Numbered from the stretch's first letter, positions 1,257 through 8,914 are shown. The stretch is DNA of 64,000 nucleotides from a virus (IMGVR_UViG_3300042892_003817), one strand, 5' to 3'. Made by a program: numbers and translations. The notes: generated from the sequence alone by a model not told the origin.

Positions 1257-1287
1257 TAAAGATACGAAATTTTTTACATTTCTCCAA
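1257..1287 (-). promoter_or_regulatory. Bacteroidota sigma70-type promoter TTG-N20-TATCTTTA
   Basis: TTG gagaaatgtaaaaaatttcg TATCTTTA. Confidence 0.65.
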
Positions 1288-1729
1288 CAGCTTCTACTAA
1301 AGCTTTTTTAACTGCTCCTGAGAATGCAGTCTTGTTAAATGGTAAGTTATCGTCGTTCAAATCTAAGAATGTTGATTGAACTGTTACGTTTGCTTCTCCT
1401 TGACCCCAGTATTCCTCTTTTCCTATTATAAGTCTTAATTTTACAATAGTAATTTTTTTAGTTTTAGAGAATGGACCTAAAGATGTATTTGTGGAAGGTG
1501 CTTCAACTGATAGTACTTCTACTTCTACTGGAGTTCCATCTTCACATATGTCATGCTTTTCAGATAGAATTTCTTCTGTCATTTGTTTAATTCCGAATAC
1601 AACTCTTTCTTTTTTCATTTCAGGTGCTTCAACTTGTGAAGACACTTTTGTTACTTTATAACATTCCTTAGTAGTTGTATCAGCTGATACTAAAAATACT
1701 AATGCTAATAATAAAAATAATTTTTTCAT
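1274..1729 (-). CDS. Exported protein, short CsgG-like paralogue
   Basis: Signal peptide MKKLFLLLALVFLVSA; C-terminus GQGEA..LD..DD..FN....KKAL aligns by eye with GSGEA..LD..DD.KFN....KKSL of 3245-3958. Confidence 0.6.
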   Translation of the reverse strand: MKKLFLLLALVFLVSADTTTKECYKVTKVSSQVEAPEMKKERVVFGIKQMTEEILSEKHDICEDGTPVEVEVLSVEAPSTNTSLGPFSKTKKITIVKLRLIIGKEEYWGQGEANVTVQSTFLDLNDDNLPFNKTAFSGAVKKALVEAVGEM

Positions 1730-1814
1730 AATACTAAACTGTTTTATCTTCCAAAAAGGAAATTTGATACCTTATCGTAAAACCTTTCAAATAATTGATT
1801 TAATTTTTTCATAA

Positions 1815-3245
1815 TTAAAATGTCAATTTACCACCTGTTAATATTTGGTAATTTAAAAATTCTTTACCTGCTTCGTATACTCCTGTAAAACTTACATTAA
1901 ACTTAAATGTCTTAGTTATTTTTAAATCCCATGAATTAAATGGTACTACTATTATGCCAGCATCCCACCATTTACCTTCGTAGAACTGAGTGAATGGAGA
2001 GTATACTCCTAATACAAGTACGCTAGTACTAACTCTATCGCTTAGTTTAAAACTACTATGTGCTCCACCTACAGCTGATAGATTCAATAAAGCTCTTTCT
2101 CCCATTTTACCTGCTGTAAAATTGACACCAAACATTCCTGTTAGTTTGTTACTTACTTTATATGATTCTAATACTGTCGTTGTACTAAAGAAATTTTTAT
2201 CAAAATCCATCATAATGGATTGAGCTCCTACTGTGTTTAATTTTTTAGATTTATTAATCCAGGATTTATAAAAAGTAACATTTAAGTTATTAACTCCTGA
2301 GGTATAATTGAATAATACTCCTTTGATTCTAGTTCCTCTAGTATTGGCATGAGTTATACTTCCTACAAATCTAAAGTTCTGAGTTTGATCAGTATTGGCA
2401 ATAGCTACTATATCTCCTGAGGCAATTAAACTTCCTACACTTTTAGCTGCATTATTAGATTTTTTACCACCGCCTGATGTTCCTCCACCGCCTGAACTTC
2501 CTCCGTCAGATGATCCTCCATCTACAGAGTTGGATAAAGAGTTAGCTAAATTACTTCCTCCACCGCTTGAACCTTCTACAGACGACTCAGACGATGAACC
2601 TCCTGTTGAAGCTGGTTGATTTGGACTTGTAGTTTCTCCTCCTTGTTGAGGTGTTCCTGTTGAAGATCCTGTAGGTGTTCCTCCAGAAGGGTTAGAAGTG
2701 GTTTGGCCTCCTTGACTTTGGTTACCTGTTGGGCTTGTTCCAGTAGTTCCTGTATTTGTTCCTGAATTGGTATTTGAATCGGATTTTTTTTCATCTTTTG
2801 AGTTTTGGTTAGTACTACCTCCTTCACTTTGTGAAGAGTTTGTTACGCCTCCGGCTGTAGCTGTCATAGAGCTTCCCATAGATCCTCCTATGGTCGCTAT
2901 GGATTGAGCTACGTTTGTTACTGATATTACATTTGTAACAACAGTTAATGTGTTAGCAACTGTTACATTGGTTATACTATTTACAATAGCTGTAGTTACT
3001 GATTCACAAGGTGAGTTTGAATTTTGTTGAGATACTAGAGTTATCCAGTTATCGAAGACTCCTGAGGAGAAGTCATTTGCAGAAAATGTATTATGGTTAT
3101 CAAAGTAGTTTACCATTACATTTCCCCCAGCAGGTACGAATACGCTCTTGGATTGTAGTGTACACGGATCTGTATAGGTGTAGCTGTACTGGGCTGAAGC
3201 CTGTAGGAAAGCAAAGAATATAAATAAAGAAATCCATTTTTTCAT
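1815..3245 (-). CDS. Exported protein with long S/G/T/N/Q low-complexity linker and C-terminal outer-membrane beta-barrel-like domain
   Basis: Signal peptide; about 140-aa Ser/Gly/Thr-rich tract; alternating hydrophobic strands; terminal Phe (GGKLTF). Confidence 0.65.
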   Translation of the reverse strand: MKKWISLFIFFAFLQASAQYSYTYTDPCTLQSKSVFVPAGGNVMVNYFDNHNTFSANDFSSGVFDNWITLVSQQNSNSPCESVTTAIVNSITNVTVANTLTVVTNVISVTNVAQSIATIGGSMGSSMTATAGGVTNSSQSEGGSTNQNSKDEKKSDSNTNSGTNTGTTGTSPTGNQSQGGQTTSNPSGGTPTGSSTGTPQQGGETTSPNQPASTGGSSSESSVEGSSGGGSNLANSLSNSVDGGSSDGGSSGGGGTSGGGKKSNNAAKSVGSLIASGDIVAIANTDQTQNFRFVGSITHANTRGTRIKGVLFNYTSGVNNLNVTFYKSWINKSKKLNTVGAQSIMMDFDKNFFSTTTVLESYKVSNKLTGMFGVNFTAGKMGERALLNLSAVGGAHSSFKLSDRVSTSVLVLGVYSPFTQFYEGKWWDAGIIVVPFNSWDLKITKTFKFNVSFTGVYEAGKEFLNYQILTGGKLTF

Positions 3246-3958
3246 TAGTTCGGAAATATCCCCTTTTTAATCATTTTTGATACTACTCTTGAAGAGGCAG
3301 TTTCTAATGACTTTTTGGTAGATACTCCGATTGTTGATTGATTAAATTTAATATCGTCGAGTCCATCTAATAAGCTTGCCTTCTTCACTGTAACTGCTTC
3401 ACCGGATCCTGATCCAGTAATTATTTCACCGCTCTGTGCATCCACAAATCTTACTTGTAACCCTAATATTGTTTTTTGTCTTATCTCAGCTCCAGAGGTT
3501 GAAACTTCTTCATCCTCACCTATGCTGAAATCATAGACTTCTATATAAACAAAATACTTTGCTAATATAACATTTCCTTTAACTTCTATTTTATTTTCTG
3601 ATATACCCTTAGCTGAAGCTATGTGTTGAGCAATCATTTTTTGTTTTATTTCTTCTCTGTCTTCTGTAAACTTAAATCTATTTGTGGACTCTAAATACTC
3701 TAATACTATATTTGATACTCCTAAACCAACTCTTTTATCTTTTAGTTCAGGGTACATTTCATATAATTCCTCATTGATACCAATCTTAAGGATCTGAATA
3801 GGGATGACTATGTCTCCGCTATAATCAGATACAACCTCTAATGATTGCTTCTTTTCAAAATCGGCTTGGTAGACTTCAGTTTTAACAGACCCTACTTTTT
3901 GAGCAGAGCCTATTATGCTTGCTAATAAAAATAGTATAAATATTAATTTTCTTACCAT
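3245..3958 (-). CDS. csgG: CsgG/HfaB-family outer-membrane secretion channel protein
   Basis: Signal peptide; G.G.SN.....L..TNRF...E.RE and LQVRFVD..SGEI..GSG.GE patterns typical of CsgG family; ATG at 3958 in TAATG overlap with upstream stop. Confidence 0.75.
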   Translation of the reverse strand: MVRKLIFILFLLASIIGSAQKVGSVKTEVYQADFEKKQSLEVVSDYSGDIVIPIQILKIGINEELYEMYPELKDKRVGLGVSNIVLEYLESTNRFKFTEDREEIKQKMIAQHIASAKGISENKIEVKGNVILAKYFVYIEVYDFSIGEDEEVSTSGAEIRQKTILGLQVRFVDAQSGEIITGSGSGEAVTVKKASLLDGLDDIKFNQSTIGVSTKKSLETASSRVVSKMIKKGIFPN

Positions 3959-4941
3959 TAGAACCAATTTCTTGGATTAGCTTTACTTTTTTCTATTGCT
4001 TTACCTGCATTATTAAGTGCATCTTGAGCTTCTCTTGCTTTTCTATCAAGTACGTCTTGAGCTTCTCTTGCTTGTCTTTCTAATTCTCTTTGAGCTGCTG
4101 CTGCTTCTTCAGCTAATCTTCTCTCAGTTGCTGCAGCTTGTTCTGCTAATACTCTAGCTGCTTCATCTGCTACACGTTTTGTTTCTGCTGCTGTTTCTTC
4201 TGCTACACGTTGTGCTTCAGCTGCTTCTTGAGATGCTAATAAATCTGCTGCTGCTTTAGCCGCTTCTTCTGCCGCTGCTTTAGCTGCTTCTACTTCATCC
4301 GATACATCTATAGTTACTGATGCGTCTACATCTACACCAACTAAAAGTGCTAATTCACCTTCAACTCCTAATGTGATAGCTCCATCATCGTAAGTAGCTC
4401 CACCTCCAACTTCTGCTCCTGCTTGTACCCCTACAGATACTCCTGCATTTGCTTCTGCTGATACATCACCTGATTGTGCTGTTACTCCTGCTTCTACTCC
4501 TACTGATGTTCCCACTGATGCTCCTGCGTTAGCTTCAGCTCCATGTTCTCCTATTGAAGCATTTGCTTCTACTCCTGCATGTGCTTCTGCATATGCTCCG
4601 GCATGTACTCCTGCTGTTCCGTAATCAGTTTCTACTTCTGTTGAAGCTTCTACCTCTACTTTTACTTCAGCTGTTACTCCAGCTGATGCTGAAGCGTCAT
4701 GTCCATCCCATCCTGCTTGTGCTTGTGCTTCTACTGATGCTTCTGCTGTAGCGTGTGCTTCTGAATTAATATCTACTCCTTCTACAACTTCGGTTGTATT
4801 TTCTACATTGGCATGAGCCTCGGCTGATACTCCGGCATTTGCTGATACTGATGTATCTGTTACTTCTGTTCCCGCGTGTGCTTCTGCTGATGCACCTGCT
4901 TGTTCGTTACCTACTACAACTCCGATTGTTTCGTCTGCCAT
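3958..4941 (-). CDS. Ala/Gly/Val/Glu-rich beta-repeat protein with C-terminal coiled coil
   Basis: Repeats such as AGVSAEAHA, AGAYAEAHAG, AGVSVGVQAG; then A/E/R heptads. Confidence 0.7.
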   Translation of the reverse strand: MADETIGVVVGNEQAGASAEAHAGTEVTDTSVSANAGVSAEAHANVENTTEVVEGVDINSEAHATAEASVEAQAQAGWDGHDASASAGVTAEVKVEVEASTEVETDYGTAGVHAGAYAEAHAGVEANASIGEHGAEANAGASVGTSVGVEAGVTAQSGDVSAEANAGVSVGVQAGAEVGGGATYDDGAITLGVEGELALLVGVDVDASVTIDVSDEVEAAKAAAEEAAKAAADLLASQEAAEAQRVAEETAAETKRVADEAARVLAEQAAATERRLAEEAAAAQRELERQAREAQDVLDRKAREAQDALNNAGKAIEKSKANPRNWF

Positions 4942-4943
4942 TT

Positions 4944-5213
4944 TTATTTATTTTTTTGTATTAATAAATCTTCTATATACTTTTCTCTTTGATCTGTTAA
5001 ATCTTTTACTCTTTCTAATAAAATTGCTTTATCTTCTTTAGTAGTTTCCTCAATATAAGCCTTTTGAGCCTCATAGAGTTTTTGCCAATAGGCAACTCTT
5101 TCTTCCATCATCACTCCCTGGTACCAGATTATTCCTACCATAACTATTATAGTAAAAGACTGTTCCTTTAGTTTAGACAGGAATGTATCCATGAACCCTT
5201 TTGTCTCTTCCAT
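4944..5213 (-). CDS. Small single-pass membrane protein with coiled coil
   Basis: FTIIVMVGIIWYQG hydrophobic segment then charged heptads. Confidence 0.65.
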   Translation of the reverse strand: MEETKGFMDTFLSKLKEQSFTIIVMVGIIWYQGVMMEERVAYWQKLYEAQKAYIEETTKEDKAILLERVKDLTDQREKYIEDLLIQKNK

Positions 5214-5216
5214 CTA

Positions 5217-5540
5217 TTACCAAGATTCTTTTTGAGCAGGAGCTGGTGCTGGTGCTGCTTGTTGAACTGGAGCAGGAGCGGCTTTAGCTGAATTAGAGTT
5301 GTTTGATTGTTGTTTTTGTTGGTTGGTGTTGTTGTTCTCCAAATTAACATTAATGACAGGTGCTGCTGCTGGTGCTGGTGCTACTTGTTCTGTTTTCACT
5401 TCTTCTTTATCTTCTGAGTGACCTCCGAATAAAGTTGTTGATACCCAAATACCTGCTCCACCGATTACTGTAGTTAGAGTTCCGATTAAGGTTTTTTTCA
5501 ATCCTGATAATCCACCTTCGTTGTTTGTTTCTTCTGACAT
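5217..5540 (-). CDS. Membrane-anchored low-complexity protein
   Basis: TLIGTLTTVIGGAGIWVSTTLFGG segment then N/Q/P/A-rich tail. Confidence 0.65.
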   Translation of the reverse strand: MSEETNNEGGLSGLKKTLIGTLTTVIGGAGIWVSTTLFGGHSEDKEEVKTEQVAPAPAAAPVINVNLENNNTNQQKQQSNNSNSAKAAPAPVQQAAPAPAPAQKESW

Positions 5541-5543
5541 AGC

Positions 5544-6275
5544 TTATTTTTTTATTACTTTAAATGTTTTTGCGAAGTTCTTACTTCTTATATTTAATAA
5601 ATAGTTACCACTTGGGTAAGCAGTTAGATCTCCATAAGTAGTATTCGGTCCTTTTGCAAAACGTTCTTTCTTTATACTTAGTTGATTTCCTCCCATGTCG
5701 TAAACTGCAATTTCATAATCTCCACTCACTGGTAAAGACATCTCCATTGTTATAATTCCATCTGTAGGTACTGGATATACTTTTCCGTGAATTCCATCTT
5801 CATCTAAAGGAGCTGCATACCTATTATAGTTGATATAACCATCTGTATTAGTTACAGCGATATCCCACCCTTGTACATTTCCAGCTGTCTTTCTTCCTAC
5901 GGTTATAGGAGTTGTAGTCCAGTTAGGATTAAGTACTGTAAATTTTAATATGAATAATTCTGTTGGAGCTGTTACAGTATGCTGTCCATGTGTTCTATCA
6001 TATCCTCCCCATCTTACTTTTCCACTTCCGGTATCCATTGTATAGGTTAACCAGGTTTGTGCTTTTTCAGATAAAATTATTTCTGAGAATTGTAAAATGC
6101 TTTGATCGTAATTTAAAGCAAATTCTAAACTCCCTACTGCATTTCCATTTGTTAGAATAGCTACAGGTAGATCTATGGTATTAGACGGAGACACTGTAAT
6201 CCCAGGCACTTGAAATTGTACCTGGGAATAGAGTGAATTTATTGATAACAGTGCTATGATTATATAGCGTAGCAT
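5544..6275 (-). CDS. Cohesin-domain protein with type IX secretion (Por) C-terminal sorting domain
   Basis: Signal peptide; cohesin-like V..PV...GSLEF.LNYD..IL; CTD KVYPVP...IAVYDMGG...G.YLL.I......KVIKK. Confidence 0.85.
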   Translation of the reverse strand: MLRYIIIALLSINSLYSQVQFQVPGITVSPSNTIDLPVAILTNGNAVGSLEFALNYDQSILQFSEIILSEKAQTWLTYTMDTGSGKVRWGGYDRTHGQHTVTAPTELFILKFTVLNPNWTTTPITVGRKTAGNVQGWDIAVTNTDGYINYNRYAAPLDEDGIHGKVYPVPTDGIITMEMSLPVSGDYEIAVYDMGGNQLSIKKERFAKGPNTTYGDLTAYPSGNYLLNIRSKNFAKTFKVIKK

Positions 6276-6276
6276 A

Positions 6277-7368
6277 TTAGTTGCGTCCTGTTCCGTTTGC
6301 GTCTCCTAATACTAGAAGATAGTAATTGGCTGCTGTTGTATTGTTAATGTTAGCTGATAAGAATGTTGCTACCCCTGGAATTGTTGCTGACTGATCTGTT
6401 GTAGCTGCTGCAATAGTGTTGTATTGAGCTTCTGTAAAGAATAGTAAATCAGGTGTGTTTGGGTAAACTGATAAACCTTGAGCCAATCTAGAGAATACTG
6501 TATATGAATCTGAAATTGTTATTCCATTTGCTTGGTTAGGGTTAGCAGTATAGAATTGAGTTCCAGTTGGAGCTTGTATTCCTGTAGCGATTTGAGCAAT
6601 CATATTTGCATCTGCTGCTGCTAATGCTCCTGGTGCTGTTAATCCTGGTGCTACTTTTACTCTAATTTGCCAGTAGTTTTGATCTAAGTTAGTTGTGAAT
6701 GATGCTACTCCTGTTGTAGTTGCTGTATTAACTGTCATTACATCTACCCAAGTTGTTCCGTTTGAAGATTTTTGTAATATTACTGGAACGTCTGAAGCTG
6801 GGTTGGTTGGATCATTTAAGAATGTAGCAGCATAGTTAAATACTGGTTCTGTGAACGCTCCTCCGTAATTATGTAATCCTAGTGTAGTATCAGTTCCATT
6901 TGCTAGAGTACCGTAAGCCGGGTAAGCTGTCGCTCCTGTAAACGCCATTGCTGTTACTGCACCGTTTGTATAACCTGCTTTAAATGGTAAAGCTACGTTG
7001 AACATTGCTCCGTCAGCAATATTGAAAGCAGCATCTGCTCCTGTGTAAACCCATGTAACTGTTACATTTCCTTCAGTAGCATTTACTAATGTTTGGAAAT
7101 AATTGTTTGCTTCAGTTCCAGTGTAAGTCACTGTAGGAGAAGCAAATACGTTTTTGTCGTACCAAAATCTGTACTGTACTGCTTTGATAGCTGTAGAACC
7201 AGCATTATCATAATAAATTGCAACGTTTGTAGGTGTTGCTCCAAGTGGTGCCAGGTTGTAACTAGCGTCAAATATTAAGTAAGGCTTAGTAGCATCAGGT
7301 GCGATAGTTTGTGCAAATCCTGTTAATGATACTAAAACTAAACTCAATACTAAAAGTAATTTTTTCAT
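6277..7368 (-). CDS. Exported cohesin-like + Ig-like + dockerin-like protein
   Basis: Signal peptide; AVQYRFWYDKNV cohesin-like strand; ANPNQANGITISDSY dockerin-like loop; C-terminal half paralogous to 7447-8445. Confidence 0.7.
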   Translation of the reverse strand: MKKLLLVLSLVLVSLTGFAQTIAPDATKPYLIFDASYNLAPLGATPTNVAIYYDNAGSTAIKAVQYRFWYDKNVFASPTVTYTGTEANNYFQTLVNATEGNVTVTWVYTGADAAFNIADGAMFNVALPFKAGYTNGAVTAMAFTGATAYPAYGTLANGTDTTLGLHNYGGAFTEPVFNYAATFLNDPTNPASDVPVILQKSSNGTTWVDVMTVNTATTTGVASFTTNLDQNYWQIRVKVAPGLTAPGALAAADANMIAQIATGIQAPTGTQFYTANPNQANGITISDSYTVFSRLAQGLSVYPNTPDLLFFTEAQYNTIAAATTDQSATIPGVATFLSANINNTTAANYYLLVLGDANGTGRN

Positions 7369-7429
7369 TTCTTTTGTTTTTAAGTTATTTTTATTTCACA
7401 ACCGGGTGCTTATGCACTCTCATACCTTT

Positions 7430-7437
7430 TATAAATA
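7430..7437 (-). promoter_or_regulatory. TATTTATA motif (putative phage late promoter), representative copy
   Basis: Same octamer upstream of many operon starts (see findings). Confidence 0.55.
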
Positions 7438-7446
7438 GTACTGATT

Positions 7447-8445
7447 TTAGTTGCTATACCCTAGTCTAGTAATATAGTAAGAAGAAACTCCACCCGATAC
7501 AGGTGTATTAATTGTAATTGTCTGTACCCCTGGAAATGTTGCTTTCAGGTTTGTTGTACTTGCATTAATTGTACTCCATTGAGTTGTTGTAAATATTCTA
7601 CTGTCTGGAGGGGATGCTGGAAAGGATGTAAATATTCCGTTTCTTCTAGCAAATATTGAATAAGTATCTGATATTGTTACTCTACCATCATTATTAACAT
7701 CAAATCTAAAATAGTCTCTACTCTTTAAAGCCAGTGATCCTAGAGTTACAGTGTTTGAAATCTGTGCATCACTTATTTGCAATGTAGGTAGGGTTGGAGG
7801 AGTAAAAGTTATGTAATATTCTACAGAAGGATTTGTTGGTGTTGAAAATACATATCTCCCTGTTACATCTGTTGTTGCTGTTGTTACCAAAGTCCAGGGT
7901 GTAAAAGTCACTATATAGTCAAATTCTAATACATACGGTAAAGATGTATTTGGTAAATCATTCCATTTACCGTTTCCTACAAATTGAGTATAATCTTCAT
8001 TATTTGAATTATTAGGTTCTCCTGAGTTCCAGTTTCCCCAAGTGTACGGCTCTCCTGTTACCCATCTCCATTGGCCTTCTACTACTTCATCTGTTAATCC
8101 TATCCATCCATCAGACCATAAGTTAAATATAAAGTTATTTTCAGCTGCTGTAGTTACAGTTACTAAATATCCTCCCATATTAGCACAAGCCTGTCTTGCA
8201 GCTGTCCATGTCATTGAACTTGTTGATCTATAATAGGAATGTCCGTTATAATTTTGCTGGTTTGTAAATCCTGTTAAAGTAGGTGTTGTTCTACTATATA
8301 ACTGCACCTGTACTCCTTGTATACCTGTAGCGTTTGATCCATAGATATAACCAGAGTGCGTAAAGGTTTGACCGTACGTAGATAAAATACCCCCTAGTAT
8401 TAGTAGAGGGTATAACATTTTTACTATTTTGGCTAATATATTCAT
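7447..8445 (-). CDS. Exported C-type lectin domain protein with dockerin-like domain
   Basis: TW..A...C...GGYLV, WIGL, W.W..G, EPN and WND motifs of CTLD; DVNNDGRVTISD dockerin-type Ca2+ loop. Confidence 0.88.
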   Translation of the reverse strand: MNILAKIVKMLYPLLILGGILSTYGQTFTHSGYIYGSNATGIQGVQVQLYSRTTPTLTGFTNQQNYNGHSYYRSTSSMTWTAARQACANMGGYLVTVTTAAENNFIFNLWSDGWIGLTDEVVEGQWRWVTGEPYTWGNWNSGEPNNSNNEDYTQFVGNGKWNDLPNTSLPYVLEFDYIVTFTPWTLVTTATTDVTGRYVFSTPTNPSVEYYITFTPPTLPTLQISDAQISNTVTLGSLALKSRDYFRFDVNNDGRVTISDTYSIFARRNGIFTSFPASPPDSRIFTTTQWSTINASTTNLKATFPGVQTITINTPVSGGVSSYYITRLGYSN

Positions 8446-8458
8446 TTCATATAAATAG

Positions 8459-8914
8459 CTATTCTTCCGTGATCTCTACTCGGTTTCCATCTACTGCAAT
8501 TTCATGCCAGTGAACTCTTCCTTCTTGAATTGCTTTTTTAATATTCTTTTGTTTTCCCATTAAAAATGCATTTCCTGATTTTACTTCAATGAAATGTACC
8601 TCACATTTGGTTTTACTCTCTGTGTTAGTAAACCCTACATAGTCGATTGGCATTCCTAGGAATACTACATCTTCTGCCGGTATAGGGAACTTTGTCATAA
8701 ACGGAACAAAGTGTTCAATTGTTTTACCCCAGTTAACTGCTGAAGATCTAAATGTTGAATCTTTTTTTACTTTTGCTTTCTCAATTATATGAGCTGCAGC
8801 TGTTTCTTCAATTTGTTTTCTCAATTGCGCTACTTCTTCTACATAGTCTTTTAGCTTTACTGTTAGTAGAAAAATTACAACTGCTAGAAATAGTGAAATA
8901 ATTAATAGTGTCAT
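8459..8914 (-). CDS. Membrane-anchored Holliday-junction-resolvase-like PD-(D/E)xK endonuclease
   Basis: N-terminal TM helix; G...EH..PF, FLG.PIDY..F, FIEVKSG motifs. Confidence 0.75.
   Translation of the reverse strand: MTLLIISLFLAVVIFLLTVKLKDYVEEVAQLRKQIEETAAAHIIEKAKVKKDSTFRSSAVNWGKTIEHFVPFMTKFPIPAEDVVFLGMPIDYVGFTNTESKTKCEVHFIEVKSGNAFLMGKQKNIKKAIQEGRVHWHEIAVDGNRVEITEE

Follow-up and report, generated by a model that had tools for sequence, protein, structure and literature searches.

Assembly of proteins through cohesins and dockerins is known mainly from bacterial digestion of plant fibre, and export by way of a type IX secretion system (T9SS) is known only as a bacterial trait. Here we describe three phage genes in which the two appear to be combined. 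They lie tightly packed on the minus strand, at positions 5,544 to 8,445 of a 64,000-nucleotide stretch (the window) that forms part of a 126-kb viral contig from IMG/VR (IMGVR_UViG_3300042892_003817, 78% complete), and encode proteins of 332, 363 and 243 aa, which we call the head (P0001), the adaptor (P0002) and the base (P0003). A sequence-only reading had placed the three open reading frames (ORFs) correctly and had assigned a lectin and a dockerin-like module to the first product, a cohesin and a dockerin-like module to the second, and a cohesin and a T9SS C-terminal sorting domain (CTD) to the third. Pfam, TIGR04183 and fold comparisons bore these domains out, and the domain and paralogy matches were far beyond chance level.

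A three-tier logic like that of the phage trio is found in the anchoring chain of the cellulosome in Clostridium (Acetivibrio) thermocellum and A. cellulolyticus (PDB 4fl4, 3kcp and 3l8q): a cargo with a dockerin, an adaptor composed of cohesin, spacer and dockerin, and a cohesin base with a surface address. These cellulosome entries were also the best structural matches of the phage adaptor, and in the phage model contact is made on the canonical face of the cohesin, with dockerin positions 10, 11, 13 and 14 on the other side. Unlike the cellulosome chain, the phage trio is encoded by a lytic-type phage, has a lectin as its cargo, and contains no enzyme, no carbohydrate-binding module (CBM) and only one cohesin per protein. 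In contrast to cellulosomal dockerins, the phage module has just one intact calcium (Ca) loop, followed by a conserved extension of some 55 aa. The trio is addressed to the surface by a T9SS type A CTD, in a diderm host, whereas the cellulosome chain relies on surface-layer homology (SLH) domains or sortase in monoderm bacteria. The term "cellulosome-like", used in the sequence-only reading, therefore suits the assembly logic, although a trio lacking enzymes and CBMs, with single cohesins, falls outside the definition of a cellulosome.

The idea that phages make use of the host T9SS is not new. Genes of the "Cryophage" carry type A sorting domains with a predicted hijack of the T9SS and vary strongly between variants, and one of the products is a PA14 protein (Bellas et al. 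2020, Nat Commun, PMC7468147). The suggestion made for the present phage thus has a precedent, while the CTD on the phage base was confirmed above cut-offs. In the Cryophage every cargo bears a CTD itself, and neither a cohesin nor a dockerin was reported, whereas here one CTD-bearing socket would serve interchangeable CTD-less heads. As far as the cited account goes, the host clade's closest analogue in function is RemA of F. johnsoniae, a lectin adhesin with a T9SS type A CTD that occurs both on the cell surface and in spent medium (PMC12618676, where Shrivastava 2012 is cited), i.e. a T9SS-exported lectin that is displayed or shed. In contrast to the phage trio, RemA as presented there consists of a single large polypeptide that carries the CTD itself, takes part in gliding, and is not modular via cohesin and dockerin.

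Pelagimyophages and the methylophage Melnitz possess a conserved CsgG/CsgF operon, for which "sibling capture" by aggregation was proposed (PMC7029224, PMC9004378). The operon of these lytic marine phages encodes proteins of the outer-membrane-secretion type; the cassette described here is always accompanied by a CsgG/LpoB-like candidate. While CsgG and CsgF are both recognisable by sequence in those phages, the likeness to CsgG is weak here, and a cohesin-dockerin-T9SS chain is present in addition. One putative archaeal virus contig has been described as containing dockerin domains (PMC13452462). In our literature search, neither a cohesin-dockerin pair or scaffold from a virus nor a T9SS-tagged cohesin serving CTD-less partners was encountered.

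On balance, we consider it probable that the trio is a phage-encoded, Sec- and T9SS-routed three-part cohesin-dockerin scaffold, by which exchangeable lectin heads are displayed at the envelope of infected Flavobacteriia; any particular biological role of this scaffold is less certain than the scaffold itself. A widespread group of large marine and brackish phages of Flavobacteriia would then appear to combine cohesin-dockerin assembly with T9SS export. If this is true, they would offer a testable example of a lytic phage rebuilding the surface of its host, a natural scaffold, either split or fused, for asking whether the T9SS carries non-covalent passengers, and small orthogonal plug-and-socket pairs of the Ca type from a diderm system for protein engineering.

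Domains, export signals and a modelled interface

The base carries the clearest signatures of both systems. Its cohesin was detected by Pfam (PF00963, E 6e-8, 33.4 bits against a cut-off of 24.1) and represents the sole match to this family across the 126-kb record. The CTD that follows was recognised by both Por_Secre_tail (PF18962, E 1.4e-9, 38.6 bits against 27) and TIGR04183 (39.3 bits against 23), and is likewise the single type A CTD of the record. The motifs from which it had been predicted, YPVP and KVIKK, were confirmed at residues 167-170 and 239-243, respectively, and the CTD motifs are kept in 25 relatives. Among the best 120 matches, the family of P0003 is apparently restricted to phages. 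In F. johnsoniae, a type A CTD is required and suffices for T9SS export of folded passengers, and it is sufficient for export of superfolder green fluorescent protein (sfGFP; PMC12618676). No T9SS CTD was detected by Pfam or TIGR04183 in the head or the adaptor.

The adaptor P0002 itself gave no Pfam match, while Pfam Cohesin was matched in 11 of its 36 homologues (best E 1.5e-5). An AlphaFold2 (AF2) model built from an alignment of 36 homologues was confident for residues 20-240 (predicted local distance difference test score, pLDDT, mostly 80-97) and of low confidence for residues 245-363. Its best PDB matches found by Foldseek were all cohesins (E 2e-8 to 1e-4, template-modelling (TM) score by target 0.6-0.74), with the cohesin-X-dockerin entries 4fl4 and 3kcp of C. 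thermocellum CipA at the top (E 2e-8). Both the model and these matches point to the nine-stranded jelly-roll fold of cohesins.

In the head, a C-type lectin domain was found with Lectin_C (PF00059, E 2.6e-17, 63.9 bits against a cut-off of 22.6), and both motifs of the Ca/sugar site are present (EPN at residues 143-145, WND at 161-163). We therefore propose that this is a sugar-binding C-type lectin of the Ca type. A weak SdrD_B/CarboxypepD-like match to a beta-sandwich was also obtained for P0001, and the lectin domain is apparently placed within a loop of the beta-sandwich. The protein contains a single Cys and so lacks the disulfides that characterise animal C-type lectins.

Head and adaptor share their C-terminal parts. 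BLASTP aligned residues 233-332 of P0001 with residues 260-358 of P0002 (100 aa, 32% identity, E 4e-11), and in relatives the match between heads and adaptors spans 157-186 aa, beta-sandwich included. The previously suggested paralogy over some 170 aa is consequently longer than what BLASTP detects in this record, but reasonable in view of the relatives. In an alignment of 26 head tails and 10 adaptor tails, the second Ca loop of P0001 (residues 249-260, DVNNDGRVTISD) is canonical, with D249, N251, D253 and D260, of which D249, N251 and D260 (positions 1, 3 and 12) are invariant in the 26 heads. Both paralogues end with an extension of about 55 aa, whose terminal or near-terminal residues Y324, G329 and N332 do not vary among heads and adaptors. 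This extension had no structural match in PDB or AFDB and lies outside the predicted interface with cohesin.

In the best AF2 model of the 112-aa tail module, a small strand-helix-strand extension comes after three helices. The top 18 matches of this model in PDB were all dockerins (TM score by target 0.60-0.68, root-mean-square deviation 2.3-3.5 Å); the Foldseek probability reached 0.99, with E values of just 0.06-3 because the domain is small. AFDB cluster matches were mostly dockerin domains as well. When compared with 1.84 billion proteins, the tail profile matched 162 clusters and, beyond its own family, retrieved proteins with four to ten Dockerin_1 repeats (E 4e-26 to 1e-9). Dockerin_1 itself reaches E 0.002-0.005 in relatives, and P0002 has no match to it in Pfam. 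Since the profile retrieves multi-Dockerin_1 proteins and the model has a dockerin fold, the shared module is, judged by profile and model, a diverged dockerin: homology to true dockerins and the dockerin fold are indicated by profile, PDB and AFDB, with the caveat that one model in five was confident. As another candidate for the tail, a T9SS type B CTD was considered and rejected, as neither CHU_C nor TIGR04131 gave a match and the model is helical, not beta-sheet.

All three proteins are predicted to be exported by Sec to the periplasm. The signal peptides, all of them hydrophobic, were read by eye, with cleavage sites between G and QTF in P0001, between A and QTI in P0002 and between S and QVQ in P0003. 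The signal peptide of the latter (MLRYIIIALLSINSLYS, followed by QVQ) has a hydrophobic core which is conserved together with the Gln at position +1. Within each of the three families, Gln at +1 is invariant or nearly so, which corresponds to the Bacteroidetes Q-rule for substrates of signal peptidase I (PMC5837995). A role of the trio in the virion was rejected, because Sec signal peptides on all three proteins and a T9SS CTD on one of them misfit particle assembly in the cytoplasm.

Binding of the head module to the adaptor cohesin was modelled with residues 221-332 of P0001 and 20-178 of P0002, using alignments made for this analysis, three runs and three controls. The interface score ipSAE was 0.85, 0.83 and 0.85 in the three runs and 0.00 in the best control; the mark for this score is reached by 58 of 80 solved complexes and by 2 of 110 mismatched pairs, a calibration which is rough for such alignments. 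At least 98% of contacts were shared between runs, and the pLDDT of the partner was 79-81. On the dockerin side, the predicted interface is formed by helix 1 (residues 224-237) and the loop-helix region 251-276 of P0001. The closest contacts are made by T257, I258, S259, T261, Y262 and F265, i.e. by loop positions 9-11 and 13-14, where the recognition residues of type I dockerins sit. On the cohesin side, residues 62-65, 90-94, 103-113 and 150-160 of P0002 are involved, which belong to strands 3, 5, 6 and 8 and represent the canonical dockerin-binding face. Of the plug-and-socket chain envisaged in the sequence-only reading, one link, head on adaptor, is thus supported by a model that stands clear of its controls; the link from adaptor to base gains indirect support from a fused polypeptide in a distant phage lineage, as described below.

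Head exchange and fusion of adaptor with base

A scan of IMG/VR with the adaptor family yielded 47 loci. The gene order, i.e. head, adaptor, base, small membrane protein, and proteins of 240, 476 and 151 aa, was kept in nearly all loci of sufficient length; the last four of these genes are of envelope type. The head gene is the variable member of this cassette. Its N-terminal part is represented by i) a C-type lectin, ii) GEVED, iii) PA14, iv) a C-type lectin with LamG, v) a legume lectin with LamG, or vi) other types without assignment. The dockerin-like module of the heads is 36-52% identical between phages whose adaptors are about 90% identical, and yet its core is retained (N251, T/S257, V/I258, S/A259, D260, Y262 and G270). 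As the head is exchanged while the sockets stay constant, the scaffold may be viewed as a universal adaptor for variable lectins. No glycoside hydrolase (GH), polysaccharide lyase (PL), carbohydrate esterase (CE) or CBM domains were found in P0001-P0003 or in 31 representative heads.

Diversification of the lectin by a diversity-generating retroelement (DGR) was considered as well and rejected for this record, as neither a reverse transcriptase nor a template repeat was present in its 126 kb (78% complete). Among 31 representative proteins that carry the tail module, one gave matches to DUF4815 and to Mtd_N, which is the N-domain of the tropism determinant from a Bordetella phage.

When 185,579 species genomes were scanned with the adaptor family by a pattern-based search that may miss distant members, no bacterial counterpart was found. 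Just two contigs from metagenome-assembled genomes (MAGs) were retrieved, both containing the same phage cassette adjoining a ribonucleotide reductase gene.

In a distant lineage (L053-L058, proteins P0158, P0172, P0178 and P0180), adaptor and base are joined in one protein of 628-641 aa with the order Coh-X-Doc-Coh-CTD. Residues 20-372 of P0158 correspond to P0002 (36% identity, E 2e-56) and residues 391-617 to P0003 (32% identity, E 3e-31), and Pfam Cohesin and Por_Secre_tail were both matched in the C-terminal end. The fused gene is followed by genes for the small membrane protein, for homologues of the 240-aa and 476-aa proteins, for a lectin-type head with the same tail, and for a homologue of the 151-aa protein. 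In this lineage the head gene has been relocated behind the 476-aa homologue, and the internal dockerin has an intact Ca loop (DVNGSNNITIAD). The fusion is the best evidence that adaptor and base would cooperate on one and the same side of the membrane, and that the adaptor is destined to exit by the T9SS.

The fusion also bears on two other explanations. As for the first, the dockerin-like module of each adaptor might bind the cohesin of the next adaptor, which would lead to a filament based on P0003 with a lectin at its tip, as suggested in the sequence-only reading. The adaptor module does keep the core T-[IV]-S-D-x-Y of the head module, which is itself modelled on the adaptor cohesin. However, many of the interface positions are not the same in the two modules (helix 1, the Ca ligands, and G270, replaced by Q in the adaptor), and the fusion in relatives points to the base cohesin as the partner of the adaptor module. 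We give self-polymerisation a slim chance. As for the second, the likeness might be one of fold only, the trio being independent secreted adhesin-like proteins with common surface domains and no mutual binding. Cohesin-like and dockerin-like modules are indeed widespread outside cellulosomes, frequently without a known partner, and the dockerin match is sub-threshold. Such independence is nevertheless very improbable in view of the strict co-inheritance of the genes, the fusion of adaptor with base, the score of the modelled complex relative to its controls, and the conservation of recognition positions across very divergent heads.

Proposed assembly and possible routes to the cell surface

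In the assembly that we propose, the dockerin-like module of the head, with its single loop, would fit into the adaptor cohesin, as in the model. The dockerin-like module of the adaptor would plug into the cohesin of the base, as suggested by the fusion in relatives and by elimination. The type A CTD of the base would hand the assembly to the T9SS of the host (SprA/PorV route), and the glycan-binding head would end up on the surface of the infected Flavobacterium, or be shed from it. The sockets would remain constant, with heads being exchanged among phages. The purpose might be to bind host-type or environmental glycans, thereby either keeping prospective hosts or particles close to the infected cell or masking receptors on this cell and its debris.

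Several observations weigh against this proposal. The head and the adaptor are devoid of a T9SS CTD, a point overlooked in the sequence-only reading, so that an extra, hypothetical step would be required to display the whole chain at the surface. The cargo of type A CTDs may be released and not anchored (PMC12618676). As for the dockerin-like module, the match of P0001 to Dockerin_1 (PF00404, E 0.075, 13.7 bits) is under the cut-off of 22.9, the tail profile reached PDB dockerin sequences at a non-significant E of 0.13, and the first dockerin repeat retains its helix and lacks the loop ligands, i.e. two tandem F-hands are not present. Only one of five AF2 models of the module was confident (pLDDT 84.9, as opposed to 39-47 in the other four). 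In the adaptor, positions 1 and 5 of the Ca loop (NPNQANGITISD) are now N and A and two Ca ligands have been lost, and the module folded poorly in the full-length AF2 model, with low pLDDT. Neither BLASTP nor hhalign detected similarity between the cohesins of P0002 and P0003, and interface residues are therefore not transferable from one cohesin to the other. Finally, the high ipSAE may partly reflect memory of solved complexes; since cohesin-dockerin complexes are abundant among solved structures, the score shows likeness to a binding-competent pair and not actual binding.

The missing CTDs could be accounted for if the head and the adaptor hitch-hiked by means of cohesin-dockerin contacts, docking on the base in the periplasm and crossing the outer membrane folded, as its passengers. 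We put this forward tentatively, as a rather doubtful possibility. If true, a single tag recognised by the host would display a library of swappable lectins, capturing neighbouring hosts or masking receptors, and this would amount to a new mode of recruitment of T9SS substrates and a new class of host-surface remodelling by phages. Alternatively, head and adaptor could exit via the co-inherited envelope proteins, or could stay periplasmic.

A periplasmic location forms the basis of another explanation, in which the CTD-less head and adaptor would hold the base back and occupy or jam the T9SS (SprA/PorV), or would bind envelope glycans from inside. This could stop the export of gliding adhesins to which phages bind as receptors, leading to superinfection exclusion. 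The presence of Sec signals on all three proteins and of a CTD on just one of them is in agreement with this. On the other hand, the adaptor is covalently joined to a CTD-bearing base in the fused lineage, so export would be expected, while a lectin with EPN and WND motifs and rapidly swapped heads would better suit variable external glycans. We find such a complex quite improbable.

The description of the base as "T9SS-anchored" in the sequence-only reading holds with respect to its type A CTD, whereas anchoring is uncertain: many F. johnsoniae cargos with such CTDs occur in the medium, and the cargo of Flavobacterium may be either held at the surface or released (PMC12618676). The same assembly might act in soluble form, with the CTD removed after T9SS export and the base with its plugged partners acting in the medium, where it would cross-link cells or coat glycans and particles. 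The dual location of RemA is consistent with this (PMC12618676), as is the absence of a lipobox or of a membrane segment beyond the signal peptide in P0003. The sequence does not decide between release and retention, but one cohesin per base offers no multivalency unless the adaptor polymerises, and the co-inherited genes of outer-membrane type suggest a cell-bound structure. A shed complex is unlikely in our opinion.

Genomic setting and neighbouring genes

The stretch encoding the trio has about 75% nucleotide identity to the Flavobacterium myophages vB_FspM_immuto. These are cultured relatives whose host is Flavobacterium sp. LMO8, from which we infer Flavobacterium as the host of the phage described here; the same genes thus exist in a cultured phage-host pair. 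In the immuto phages, the orthologue of P0001 is annotated as "lectin C-type domain-containing protein", that of P0002 as "hypothetical protein" and that of P0003 as "cohesin domain-containing protein"; the three orthologues are numbered immuto35A_13 to _15. No PHROGs family was assigned to P0001, P0002 or P0003. Scans of the locus for sigma-70 promoters and terminators gave results at chance level and were uninformative for a Bacteroidota host. Features of the locus are summarized in Table 1.

Table 1. Positions of the trio, its domains and the genes downstream of it (coordinates of the window)
Feature	Position	Strand	Basis
P0001, head, 332 aa: signal peptide, C-type lectin in beta-sandwich, dockerin-like module, C-terminal extension	7447-8445	minus	ORF, Lectin_C
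P0001 Sec signal peptide, residues 1-25, predicted cleavage between STYG and QTF	8371-8445	minus	read from sequence
P0001 C-type lectin domain, residues 77-168	7942-8217	minus	Lectin_C; EPN, WND
P0001 dockerin-like module, residues 221-277: helix, first loop degenerate, single canonical Ca loop (D249-D260), helix	7615-7785	minus	fold matches, profile, predicted cohesin contacts
P0001 conserved C-terminal extension, residues 278-332, ends YYITRLGYSN	7450-7614	minus	conservation
P0002, adaptor, 363 aa: signal peptide, cohesin, beta-sandwich, dockerin-like module with decayed Ca loop, extension	6277-7368	minus	ORF, homologues, AF2
P0002 cohesin domain, residues 20-175	6844-7311	minus	AF2 pLDDT 82-97, Foldseek cohesins, PF00963 in 11/36 homologues
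P0002 beta-sandwich spacer, residues 176-240, prealbumin/Big_1-like	6649-6843	minus	AF2 pLDDT ~90; weak Transthyretin, Big_1, SdrD_B matches in homologues
P0002 dockerin-like module and extension, residues 248-363, paralogous to P0001 tail	6280-6627	minus	BLASTP E 4e-11, per-column comparison
P0003, base, 243 aa: signal peptide, cohesin, T9SS type A CTD	5544-6275	minus	ORF, Pfam, TIGR04183
P0003 cohesin domain, residues 19-150	5826-6221	minus	PF00963 above gathering score
P0003 T9SS type A CTD, residues 166-243	5547-5780	minus	PF18962, TIGR04183
107-aa single-pass membrane protein	5217-5540	minus	synteny
Insert: 89-aa single-pass membrane/coiled-coil protein and 327-aa Ala/Glu/Gly/Val-repeat protein without signal peptide	3958-5213	minus	
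240-aa exported protein, CsgG/LpoB-like candidate	3245-3967	minus	language-model features, synteny
476-aa exported protein ending in KLTF	1815-3245	minus	synteny
151-aa protein	1274-1729	minus	synteny

Genes for DnaB, a ribonucleotide reductase and a Holliday-junction-resolvase-like protein are located upstream of the trio. The last of these, an endonuclease gene (PF10107, E 4e-22) at 8459-8914 on the minus strand, is its direct neighbour. In the immuto phages, an additional gene for a NUC1-type DNA/RNA endonuclease G, absent from this record, is found between the resolvase-like gene and the lectin gene.

The downstream block of genes (1274-5540, minus strand) is syntenic in the 47 viral loci and in the fused lineage. 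The insert, encoding the 89-aa and 327-aa proteins, is shared by this window with a small number of relatives (L009, L018, L019 and L044), and absent from the immuto phages and from most loci. The 240-aa protein might be a CsgG-type protein, which we regard as a lead only. Its language-model features resemble the CsgG/HfaB/LpoB clusters at 0.94. Comparison of its family with Pfam CsgG (PF03783) gave a weak match in one of seven homologues (E 0.011), and hhalign of its profile with CsgG domains of Flavobacteriaceae was weak as well (probability 6.8%, E 0.005); the profile had no match in PDB.

The 476-aa protein is present in every cassette. It has a long low-complexity middle part rich in Ser, Gly and Thr, and the end of its C-terminal half (KLTF) is typical of outer-membrane beta-barrels; Phage_OMP and BcsS clusters provided weak leads at 0.88. 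The 151-aa protein has a C-terminal motif of 36 aa in common with the 240-aa protein (BLASTP E 8e-4).

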